A stretch of DNA of 64,000 bases from an uncultured Candidatus Saccharibacteria bacterium (GTDB lineage Bacteria > Patescibacteriota > Saccharimonadia > CAILAD01 > BJGX01): positions 12,341-76,340 of the forward strand of contig CAYZYH010000003.1 of the NCBI GenBank assembly GCA_964481235.1, written 5' to 3'. The position numbers were made by a program, and so were the translations under genes. The notes beneath the pieces are model-generated. The model made no database searches and was not told where the DNA came from. It worked only from the letters and a program-made list of their open reading frames with translations. Below, one piece after another: positions 18,885 to 19,754 of the stretch. Position 1 is the first letter of the stretch; the number at the start of each line of letters is the position of its first letter.

Positions 18885-19754
18885 TTAGGTTTTAGGGGCA
18901 GGAGTTGTCGTGTAGAAGAAGTTGTATCCACCATCTCTATTTCTATCCCAGGTATAACTTGCACCTAGTAGACACCAGAATTGCTTGTAGCAATCTATTC
19001 CAGCTATTTGATTTTCAAAGGTTGTATCTTTGGCATGCTCTACGTTGTTACCAGTGCGTTCTAATACAGCACCTGCGGGTACACCACTTTGAGGTCTTAA
19101 ACAAAATGTATTACCAACCGGCACCGCAAACGAAAATCTTCCCTCACCATCGGTTGTAACTGTTCTATCAGCACTACAGGTGGCTATCACTACATTGGCA
19201 AGCGCTGCATTATTTAAAGTAACCCGCCCATTTATAATGACATTATAACTCTCTGAGTCTACTCCAAAAGGTTTGGCGGGAGGTGATGGTGCAGCAGTTG
19301 TAGCCGGCACTGTACTGCCAGCATTTAGCTGATCTTCTACGGTACCAGGAATTGTCGCGCCTTTTATCCAGCACGAGTAACTTGAGCTCCACGGTGCCGT
19401 GCCACTTTTGGCAAAAGATAGGTAAAATCTCTCATCTTGAACCTCTGGTGGAGCATCGGCTGGGTCGGCATAGCCCTTATAGTTCCCCCAAGTAGCAGGA
19501 CTGTATTGGTAAGCACCACGATAATTTGGATTTTTCTTATTTTGATAGAATGTACCCGACTCACACTGTGCAATACGCGGTCGCCAATAATCTGGATTAT
19601 CTCTAAAAACCGGCGCACTACCCGCAAAAGATTTATATATAACAAATACTCCAACTATCAAAAACAAACATATTAGCCCAAATGCAAGTAACTTGTTGTG
19701 GGGGATGGTGGTAAGTGATCTTCTAGAAAAGTGTTCTTTTTTGTTTTTTGCCAT
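18885..19754 (-). CDS. membrane-anchored secreted protein with Rpf/transglycosylase-like domain plus CarboxypepD_reg-like beta domain
   Basis: N-terminal TM; CESG..NPNYRGAYQYSPATW..PADAPPEVQDERFY..APW..C matches the transglycosylase-like (Rpf) domain; C-terminal GRVTLNN..TTDGEGRFSF beta-sandwich motif. Confidence 0.65.
   Translation of the reverse strand: MAKNKKEHFSRRSLTTIPHNKLLAFGLICLFLIVGVFVIYKSFAGSAPVFRDNPDYWRPRIAQCESGTFYQNKKNPNYRGAYQYSPATWGNYKGYADPADAPPEVQDERFYLSFAKSGTAPWSSSYSCWIKGATIPGTVEDQLNAGSTVPATTAAPSPPAKPFGVDSESYNVIINGRVTLNNAALANVVIATCSADRTVTTDGEGRFSFAVPVGNTFCLRPQSGVPAGAVLERTGNNVEHAKDTTFENQIAGIDCYKQFWCLLGASYTWDRNRDGGYNFFYTTTPAPKT

Follow-up and report, generated by a model that had tools for sequence, protein, structure and literature searches.

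The minus-strand gene at positions 18,885 to 19,754 of the window (i.e. of the whole 64,000-nucleotide stretch of Saccharibacteria DNA analysed here) raises the question of what an enzyme with a resuscitation-promoting factor (Rpf) domain does in such a bacterium, whose wall it would act upon, and how the gene came to reside there. Rpf enzymes are known above all from Actinobacteria, in which the corresponding domain, PF06737, is abundant. Saccharibacteria and other Patescibacteria, in turn, rely on contact with bacterial hosts, and little is understood of how they reshape their own wall or get through that of a host. We propose, with a rough probability of 0.55, that the gene encodes a vertically inherited, Sec-exported muralytic enzyme of Saccharibacteria which carries a wall-binding C-terminal domain and acts on the cell's own peptidoglycan.

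The open reading frame starts with ATG and encodes a protein of four parts, namely a basic N-terminal tail with a hydrophobic helix, an Rpf-type transglycosylase-like domain, a linker, and a β-sandwich C-terminal domain (CTD). These parts, and the sites within and around them, map to the window as follows.

18885..19754, minus strand: complete coding sequence, 289 residues plus stop codon (18885-18887), from the ORF list
19692..19754, minus strand: basic N-terminal tail, residues 1-21, MAKNKKEHFSRRSLTTIPHNK, predicted cytoplasmic n-region (from sequence; topology from the positive-inside rule)
19626..19691, minus strand: hydrophobic helix, residues 22-43, signal-anchor or h-region of a long signal peptide (AF2 model and dN/dS)
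19617..19625, minus strand: A44-G45-S46, candidate signal peptidase I site (AxG/S, then I/V/A-P/T-V-F; family conservation)
19350..19613, minus strand: Rpf-type transglycosylase-like domain, residues 48-135 (PF06737, RpfC/RpfE sequence matches, Foldseek, pLDDT, dN)
19554..19565, minus strand: C64-E65-S66-G67, catalytic Glu motif by alignment to the CESG of RpfC/RpfE; C64 is the predicted disulfide partner of C128 (19371-19373)
19248..19349, minus strand: linker rich in Pro, Ala, Ser and Thr, residues 136-169, disordered (pLDDT 33-50)
18888..19247, minus strand: CTD, residues 170-289, a β-sandwich followed by a Cys/Trp/Asp-rich C-terminal part
18853..18875, no strand assigned: hairpin with a 10-bp stem between convergent genes, likely a shared terminator (terminator scan and sequence)
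19766..19794, minus strand: weak promoter-like site TTGATT-17-TATAGT, 12 nt upstream of the ATG (consensus scan and sequence)

A protein identical to that of the window is called on four public contigs, and full-length orthologues form 29 protein clusters and occupy 38 genome loci. The gene is under strong purifying selection (dN/dS of about 0–0.04 when compared with an orthologue of 96% identity), and is therefore a gene rather than a chance match of motifs. Constraint is strongest in the Rpf domain (dN = 0 at dS = 0.52 in this comparison) and weakest in the hydrophobic helix (dN/dS ∼0.2); the CTD exhibits a dN/dS of 0.02–0.04. As for the flanking signals, the hairpin has a good T-run on the plus strand only, and the minus-strand gene may use it as a terminator. 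Promoter-like sites are no denser in the region than in shuffled sequence (5 found, 4.6 expected).

The preliminary description had assigned an Rpf-type domain to this gene on the basis of five motifs, all of which are found in the translation: CESG (residues 64–67), NPN, YRGAYQYSPATW, PADAPPEVQ and APWSSSYSCW. This assignment is borne out, in that (i) PF06737 (Transglycosylas) matches residues 60–123 of the whole protein with 32.5 bits (E 1.4e-7), i.e. above its gathering cutoff of 27, and the Rpf domain alone with 35.5 bits, (ii) the profile likewise matches 22/22 family members (best E 4e-12), (iii) the solved RpfC structures 2n5z and 4ow1 are matched by sequence (E ∼4e-5), and (iv) the AF2 model, with pLDDT values of 85–91 across residues 50–130, exhibits an RpfC-like fold (Foldseek: RpfC 4ow1, TM 0.81, r.m.s.d. 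2.5 Å; RpfB 4emn, TM 0.76). Within the family, the domain is lengthened at its N terminus by a DYWRPRI helix and at its C terminus by PWxxSYxCW, both of them family-specific. The NCBIfam equivalog for RpfC, NF046107, scores 32.6 bits against a cutoff of 200, and no named Rpf equivalog is matched; judged by these scores, we classify the protein as an Rpf-domain protein and not as an orthologue of RpfC. Neither DUF348 (PF03990) nor G5 (PF07501) is present in it, even at E ≤ 10.

Both C64 and E65 are found in 97/97 informative family sequences and C128 in 101/101; Q83, T88, W89 and W122 are likewise invariant beside the CESG context. The distance of C128 from the PW motif exceeds that in canonical Rpfs by four residues. 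We infer that Glu65 of the lysozyme-like domain would cleave the glycan strand of peptidoglycan, and that the domain is probably braced by a C64–C128 disulfide, as in mycobacterial Rpfs. It might be argued that the protein merely keeps an Rpf-like fold and serves as a non-catalytic wall-binding or structural surface protein. Nothing specific speaks for this view apart from the modest Pfam score and the missing equivalog match, and given that the catalytic Glu and its surroundings are invariant in precisely the most constrained part of the protein, we find it scarcely credible.

The protein had also been described as membrane-anchored and secreted. A hydrophobic helix (modelled at residues 21–43 with pLDDT 82–83) indeed follows a tail which is K/R-rich throughout the family, its type being conserved and its sequence not, and the helix may represent either a permanent anchor or a cleaved signal peptide. 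At the candidate cleavage site, position –3 is Ala in 97/97 sequences and position –1 is Gly, Ser or Ala in 94/97. Tail and helix would thus be expected to direct the protein to Sec export, upon which the helix is either kept as an N-in/C-out anchor or cut off at the conserved AxG/S site.

The linker, which varies in length and sequence across the family, leads to a CTD whose residues 170–235 match the prealbumin/CnaB/transthyretin-like β-sandwich at the fold level, with seven strands superposable on transthyretin-like and CnaB domains. The preliminary description had named this domain carboxypeptidase-regulatory-like: the fused architecture is correct and the fold agrees, but the profile PF13620 stays below its cutoff (19.8–21.9 bits versus 32.3) and spans only positions 2–49 of 82. 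It is nonetheless detected at E ≤ 0.1 in 21/22 family members (best E 1.5e-5), alongside weak matches, all of them under cutoff, to PF13715, PF17210 and PF17802, i.e. to CarboxypepD_reg, SdrD-B and CnaB-type domains. From these the CTD differs in two respects. First, no position within residues 165–285 has Lys in >80% of 102 family sequences, so that the isopeptide bond of CnaB-type domains cannot be expected; Cys is conserved instead, and one or two disulfides are predicted, with C193–C218 and C255–C261 as the candidate pairs. Second, the CTD has an additional conserved C-terminal segment of ∼50 residues (NNVEH...WDRxxDxGYNF, with FExQxAG as a further conserved motif of this part), for which no relatives are detectable. 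For the second half of the CTD the model is poor (pLDDT 47–66), and any role assigned to it would be a guess. The fusion is exclusive: in none of 38 genome loci and 24 metagenome loci does the CTD lack an accompanying Rpf domain. In relatives outside the family which share the same start of transmembrane helix and Rpf domain, its place is taken by PA14, Ricin-B plus PG_binding_1, B_lectin or fn3. By model and by analogy, the CTD may then be a module which binds a cell-wall polymer and, being predicted to be disulfide-stabilised and carried on a flexible linker, could position or retain the enzyme.

How the gene came to be in this genome can be addressed by its distribution. By record titles, the two-domain gene is present in 38 species-level Saccharibacteria/Saccharimonadia genomes, down to 36% identity, the closest with 96% amino acid identity. 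The closest genomes bear the titles Candidatus Saccharibacteria, Saccharimonadia or Patescibacteria, and one family member is encoded on a genome record consisting of a single contig of 798 kb, which fits the earlier supposition of a reduced-genome, probably episymbiotic bacterium. In a search with the family profile, members score at least 119 bits and all other proteins at most 85 bits; among 1.84 billion proteins, only four representatives at 50% identity reach 119 bits. The family is limited to part of the Saccharimonadia and hence does not rank as a housekeeping gene common to the whole class. The claim that this domain typifies Actinobacteria and some Firmicutes proved too narrow, as 3035 representatives match the family profile, including ones from phage and low-GC cellular contigs.

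In 34 of 38 Saccharibacteria loci, down to 37% identity, the gene order is UvrC–holin–SBP5–[gene]–FAD oxidase–FolD; in the window, the neighbours are UvrA, UvrC, SBP_bac_5, FAD oxidase and FolD. Two contexts are conserved overall, one with uvrC, secG and folD and, for divergent members, one with malic enzyme and a ZIP transporter; both consist of housekeeping or metabolic genes, and the latter is uninformative on a functional link. No pili, T4SS, secretion or other contact machinery was found in either. Paralogues are absent from the 64-kb window and from every family locus. An adjacent ORF of 133 residues was ruled out as an immunity or partner gene, being present in the two closest genomes only.

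The preliminary description had raised horizontal transfer from a host. As a recent event this is not supported, because the gene is shared by 38 genomes, keeps its synteny, has a native composition (GC3 0.32, neighbours 0.29–0.34) and is strongly constrained; the solved mycobacterial Rpfs, moreover, are only ∼29% identical. Recent transfer from an actinobacterial host thus appears effectively excluded, and the gene is, as far as sequence can tell, old, vertically inherited and present in single copy within one clade of environmental Saccharimonadia. An ancient origin from another phylum or by way of a phage is possible. That the Rpf domain or the gene was at some time acquired from an actinobacterial host would accord with the abundance of the domain in Actinobacteria, with the many high-GARP, actinobacterial-looking proteins among the 150 best profile matches, and with relative P0094, which shares the extended domain and is encoded on a contig of 67.5% GC. 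Yet the closest cores reside on phage and cellular contigs of 41–46% GC rather than on high-GC ones, and the sharp drop in score outside the family as well as synteny and GC3 argue likewise against such an acquisition. A tree of the Rpf core (neighbour joining with Kimura distances; 260 sequences, 69 columns, 200 bootstraps) neither recovers nor contradicts monophyly of the family, and with bootstrap values of at most 0.2 at deep nodes it supports nesting within Actinobacteria no more than it opposes it. Overall, we consider an actinobacterial source improbable.

Phages constitute the other conceivable source. Profile searches with short queries, which list proteins of up to about twice the query length, identified small phage Rpf-like proteins (the P0182 group and P0037) as the closest catalytic cores outside the family, with up to 63% identity (P0182). 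These proteins share NKKNPxYRGAYQY and DPADAPPEVQD with the family, and P0037 also the GTQPWxASxxCW tail; they comprise 130–190 residues with an N-terminal signal or coiled-coil region, are devoid of the CTD, and are encoded near CHAP lysins on uncultured phage contigs of 37–41 kb. Seven IMG/VR contigs carry this Rpf type, and a BFVD fold search, which yielded weak matches only, includes 'transglycosylase-like' proteins of uncultured phages. It could hence be suggested that the gene is a phage-derived lysin, either the remnant of a prophage lysis cassette or a phage capture. The setting does not resemble that of an endolysin, however: phage genes flank it neither in the window nor at any of the 38 loci, integrase, att sites and phage remnants are absent from the loci examined, and the position of the gene among housekeeping genes is fixed. 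The membrane protein of PF04020 ('holin superfamily IV') is located two genes away in the window and three in most loci, where it is separated from the Rpf gene by SBP5 and encoded on the opposite strand. The similarity would be accounted for just as well if phages had taken the gene from their hosts. Among phage sequences, relatives are restricted to uncultured contigs; GenBank phages show no match to the window Rpf domain in tblastn, and the single GenBank phage related to the phage contigs is an uncultured Caudoviricetes. Apart from the Rpf gene, the phage contigs L047 and L048 have no protein or spacer-like nucleotide match to the Saccharibacteria sequence analysed here. A phage origin is thus very improbable in our judgement.

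It remains to consider whose wall is the target. The helix and the catalytic domain are only ∼4–10 residues apart. This short tether argues for action on the cell's own wall, an argument that falls if the signal peptide is cleaved. The absence of diversifying selection in the CTD and the housekeeping or metabolic nature of both contexts were likewise noted in favour of own-wall action. Against it stand the lineage restriction of the family, with its four representatives, and the fact that CnaB-type domains and the lectin modules of the relatives are typical of outward adhesins and would fit host contact equally well. An enzyme directed at the host would cut host peptidoglycan at the attachment site, or signal, for the sake of nutrients or host growth, its CTD recognising a host polymer. 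Actinobacterial Rpfs stimulate growth, and the host-directed reading draws on this enzyme type being best known from Actinobacteria, on the fold which the CTD shares with Gram-positive surface adhesin and pilin domains, on the related proteins with lectin-type modules, on the lineage-restricted rather than universal occurrence, and on dN values which, between close species, are ∼6-fold as high for the CTD as for the Rpf domain. For the CTD, positive selection was ruled out, however, since dN/dS is ≤0.12 wherever dS is measurable (i.e. unsaturated); neither conserved context is linked to contact machinery, no cultivated epibiont is among the 38 genome matches of this freshwater and groundwater clade, and an uncleaved enzyme would be held only a few residues away from the membrane of its own cell. 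We thus regard a host-directed function as possible, but on the whole unlikely. The indirect evidence leans mildly to the own wall, and we infer self rather than host as the target: the enzyme would most likely serve growth, daughter-cell separation or the making of room for envelope machines.

It is nonetheless tempting to speculate, although we hold this to be rather doubtful, that the protein is an epibiont effector which is released by signal peptidase, docks with its CTD on a polymer of the host wall, and opens host peptidoglycan or frees muropeptide signals with its Rpf domain, the phage relatives then reflecting gene flow among epibiont, host and phage. If so, Saccharibacteria would use an Actinobacteria-type 'wake-up' enzyme to breach or stimulate their hosts. 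With its strongly constrained Rpf domain and lineage-specific predicted binding module, the family is in any event a compact candidate for study. A CTD binding the host wall would provide a molecular handle on epibiont–host specificity, and one binding the self wall would mark an autolysin of a clade with very few such enzymes. The phage-encoded relatives, finally, offer a possible route to assign phages to uncultivated Saccharibacteria.

When compared with known systems, the own-wall enzyme proposed here shares with the catalytic domains of M. tuberculosis RpfC, RpfB and RpfE (4ow1, 2n5z, 4emn, 4cge) the PF06737 domain and a lysozyme-like fold (TM 0.76–0.81), a CESG whose catalytic Glu in RpfC and RpfE aligns residue for residue with E65, a conserved Cys pair and (here predicted) export. 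Sequence identity is ∼22–29%, and the family differs by 'GAYQ[YF]' in place of 'GGLQF', by a second Cys placed in the longer PWxxSYxCW tail, by the extra DYWRPRI helix, by its C-terminal module, and by belonging to Saccharibacteria instead of Actinobacteria. Proteins of RpfB architecture (DUF348-G5-Rpf, K21688) such as P0052, P0060 and P0070, which are encoded on low-GC cellular contigs, have cores 56–59% identical to that of the window; DUF348 and G5 are both present in these as well as in P0074 and P0166, whereas the window protein has neither and carries its Rpf domain N-terminally rather than C-terminally, followed by the family-specific CTD. Rpf (K21688) is reported to be enriched in oral Patescibacteria (preprint, bioRxiv 10.1101/2025.03.10.642329), so that Rpf-type genes were already established in the phylum. 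Databases already label such proteins 'transglycosylase family protein'. The layout of tail, helix, Rpf domain and binding module recurs in the lectin fusions P0035 (PA14), P0120 and P0135 (PG_binding_1 plus Ricin-B) and P0174 (B_lectin), which have other C-terminal modules and Rpf domains scoring 58–80 bits against the family profile. Micrococcus luteus Rpf (Rpf domain plus LysM) and modular Gram-positive autolysins likewise combine a secreted catalytic domain with a wall-binding module. The window protein follows the same logic, with a predicted disulfide-containing prealbumin/CnaB-like sandwich in place of LysM. The enzyme is of an ordinary kind, its packaging being slightly new, and comes from a phylum in which Rpf has been reported before; the result is accordingly a sound refinement of annotation rather than a surprise.

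The open reading frame listing places the gene on the minus strand, a detail missing from the preliminary description:

18885-19754, minus strand: 289-residue open reading frame with ATG start, encoding a basic tail and helix, an Rpf (resuscitation-promoting-factor) domain, a linker and a C-terminal β-sandwich domain (CTD)

Its translation contains all motifs quoted earlier, i.e., CESG, NPN, YRGAYQYSPATW, PADAPPEVQ and APWSSSYSCW, and the Rpf assignment is borne out by Pfam, with residues 60–123 matching PF06737 (transglycosylase-like) at 32.5 bits (gathering score 27). Among proteins of solved structure, sequence search retrieves RpfC and RpfE, the CESG motif being aligned, and Foldseek matches the Rpf part to RpfC (4ow1; TM 0.81, r.m.s.d. 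2.5 Å, 29% identity) and RpfB (4emn; TM 0.76). With the NCBIfam RpfC equivalog (cutoff 200) it reaches only 32.6 bits, so that, although it contains an Rpf domain, it is orthologous to none of the named mycobacterial Rpf proteins. The AlphaFold2 model (29 homologues as input), which like our other structure models is of moderate confidence, exhibits a helix at residues 21–43, a confident Rpf domain (pLDDT 85–91), a disordered linker (136–168) and a β-domain starting at residue 171. Domain identity apart, we infer all that is said below about function.

The carboxypeptidase-regulatory-like domain proposed previously holds at the level of the fold, but not as membership of PF13620: the match (19.8 bits versus 32.3) spans only profile positions 2–49 of 82, and recurs equally weakly in 21 of 22 relatives, beside SdrD_B, SpaA and related prealbumin-type families. 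No lysine is conserved anywhere in the CTD, which rules out an isopeptide CnaB domain. This and the following residue counts come from 102 family sequences that were not de-replicated. In the second half of the CTD, N236, E247, Q249, W269, D270 and D274 are invariant and Y277 and N278 nearly so, which suggests a putative ligand- or Ca2+-binding site in a region that is poorly modelled. C64 and the catalytic E65 are kept in all 97 informative sequences, and C128, C193 and C218 never vary. As a disulfide pair would, C255 and C261 co-occur in 67 sequences, are both replaced in 33 and never occur singly, although a small number of evolutionary events might account for this; the remaining predicted disulfides would then be, by elimination, C64–C128 (the Rpf disulfide) and C193–C218. 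Residue 44 is Ala in 97/97 sequences and residue 46 is Gly, Ser or Ala in 94/97, preceded by a tail rich in K/R and ∼20 hydrophobic residues, which fits a candidate signal peptidase I site. Hence, of the 'membrane-anchored secreted' protein described at the outset, both states are possible: the N-terminal helix is modelled and the candidate cleavage site conserved.

The identical protein is found on four public metagenome contigs. A word-indexed search yielded 29 clusters of one architecture (279–300 residues, apart from one 177-residue fragment), those with names reading 'transglycosylase family protein [Candidatus Saccharibacteria bacterium]', and a scan with one genome per species gave 38 loci with identities of 36% to 96%. 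All 38 are metagenome-assembled genomes titled Saccharibacteria, Saccharimonadia, Patescibacteria or 'bacterium' (taxonomy taken from record titles), from lakes, groundwater and river water where a source is given; one is found on a single contig of 798 kb, which fits a reduced genome. When 1.84 billion representatives were searched exhaustively with the profile, 3035 Rpf-domain proteins came up at E ≤ 0.001; only four of these, all of this family, reach at least 119 bits, and the next best score at most 85, so that the family is narrow and well delimited. Rpf domain and CTD share one reading frame in every complete locus, and likewise at each of 24 further metagenome loci found with a CTD profile wherever upstream sequence is readable; within the limits of pattern-based scans, whose counts are lower bounds, no CTD without an Rpf domain was found. 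Neither the window nor any family locus holds a paralogue. In bin CAYNHH01, the complete syntenic block with its Rpf gene occurs twice, on separate contigs (L021 and L022) and at slightly different identities, probably because the bin mixes strains or contains a duplication. In an old environmental shotgun contig (AACY023441992.1) the gene is frameshifted inside the Rpf domain and hence split, either by sequencing error or as a pseudogene.

The gene order UvrC, PF04020 membrane protein, (SecG), SBP_bac_5, Rpf gene, FAD-linked oxidase, FolD is conserved in 34 of the 38 loci, with the Rpf gene divergent from the oxidase gene, and persists even where the Rpf protein is only 37% identical; the other four include a second context, with malic enzyme and a ZIP transporter adjoining. 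In the window, the SBP_bac_5 side comprises:

15858-16217, plus strand: 119-residue membrane protein, PF04020 ('mycobacterial 4-TMS phage holin, superfamily IV')
16442-18184, plus strand: family-5 solute-binding protein SBP_bac_5 (OppA/MppA type) with N-terminal hydrophobic segment
18244-18330: tRNA-Leu(CAG)
18447-18848, plus strand: 133-residue open reading frame without Pfam match

GC3 of the Rpf gene is 0.32 (neighbours 0.29–0.34). Against the 96% orthologue, for which synonymous sites are unsaturated (dS 0.38–0.77), the Rpf domain shows no replacement (dN 0), and linker and CTD have dN/dS of 0.02–0.04; in closer species, replacements in the CTD are ∼6-fold those in the Rpf domain and never near neutrality. 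Synteny, native GC3 and purifying selection thus show that the gene is functional and has descended vertically; they exclude recent acquisition from a high-GC host. A neighbour-joining tree of the 69-column catalytic core leaves deep nodes unsupported (bootstrap ≤0.2). One syntenic locus (JADZBC010000009.1) has 50.7% GC versus 39–41% in the others, so that GC varies widely within the clade.

The PF04020 gene lies near the Rpf gene in nearly all 38 loci (two genes off in the window, mostly three), on the opposite strand and separated by SBP_bac_5, plus SecG in most loci; the proximity of a holin-like protein to a muralytic enzyme may be coincidence. SBP_bac_5 is the conserved convergent neighbour, its end overlapping that of the Rpf gene in one locus (L029), and a peptide- or muropeptide-binding protein alongside a wall hydrolase is suggestive. 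The 133-residue frame and tRNA-Leu(CAG) lie between the two in the window; the former was detected in the two closest genomes (85% and 37% identity) but in none of the other loci, and is thus a lineage-specific insertion. Two further frames, of 153 (21988-22449, TTG start) and 258 residues (24383-25159, GTG start), begin inside tRNA-Leu genes (21956-22042 and 24377-24462), so that their true starts lie downstream. Five tRNA genes (Val, Gly, Phe, Cys, Leu) cluster on both strands at 23315-24462, and tRNA-Phe(GAA) occurs twice in 64 kb (23677-23752, 62160-62233) of an apparently small genome.

Several non-family proteins have catalytic cores 56–63% identical to ours, as near as most of its orthologues. 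The relatives outside the family comprise (i) small phage-borne proteins of 130–190 residues with a C-terminal Rpf domain, (ii) proteins of RpfB architecture (DUF348-G5-Rpf) on cellular contigs of 45% GC, (iii) proteins with a family-like start (basic tail, helix, Rpf) ending in PA14, PG_binding_1 plus Ricin-B, B_lectin or fn3, and (iv) many high-GARP, actinobacterial-looking proteins, of which P0094, on a 67.5% GC contig, shares the extended Rpf domain. The third layout (P0035 on L051, P0120, P0135, P0174, P0159) forms a wider, undescribed set. In the first group, the core of P0182 is 63% identical to that of our protein and P0037 carries the GTQPWxASxxCW tail common to the family; their contigs (37–41 kb, 41–43% GC) encode virion structural proteins, HNH nucleases, NinG, a methyltransferase and CHAP endolysins, and are phage genomes. 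The type occurs on seven IMG/VR contigs and had no match among GenBank phages. Small Rpf-domain proteins on uncultured phage contigs include:

L047, 5582-6094
L048, 10001-10528
also L049 and L054-L060

These contigs measure 37–47 kb at 41–43% GC with CHAP endolysins close to the Rpf gene, whose products (170–175 residues) have a signal/coiled-coil N-terminus. One IMG/VR contig is from JGI sample 3300033075, and a Saccharibacteria contig bearing a family member comes from the sample with the adjoining number, 3300033074.

The best-supported reading is that of a Sec-exported muralytic glycosidase whose distal β-sandwich would bind a wall polymer. We favour the bacterium's own wall as substrate (probability roughly 0.55), because (i) the tether from helix to catalytic domain is very short, (ii) the CTD carries no arms-race signature, (iii) the gene context is fixed among housekeeping genes, and (iv) no contact machinery is linked to it. 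An epibiotic lifestyle, a CTD folded like an adhesin, the confinement of the family to one clade and a published suggestion (PMC11665869) that lytic transglycosylases of Patescibacteria target the envelopes of their hosts would instead speak for an enzyme directed at the host wall, which we consider a less likely alternative.

NCBI already names family members 'transglycosylase family protein', and KEGG Rpf (K21688) is enriched in oral Patescibacteria (2025 preprint, 10.1101/2025.03.10.642329); in the literature we found neither a description of the Rpf–CTD architecture nor a discussion of Rpf function in Saccharibacteria. What is new is thus an undescribed, exclusive fusion of a known catalytic domain, bearing family-specific extensions, with a lineage-specific module. 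Combining a catalytic with a binding domain is the usual design of Gram-positive wall hydrolases, and it is this design that we propose for the protein.
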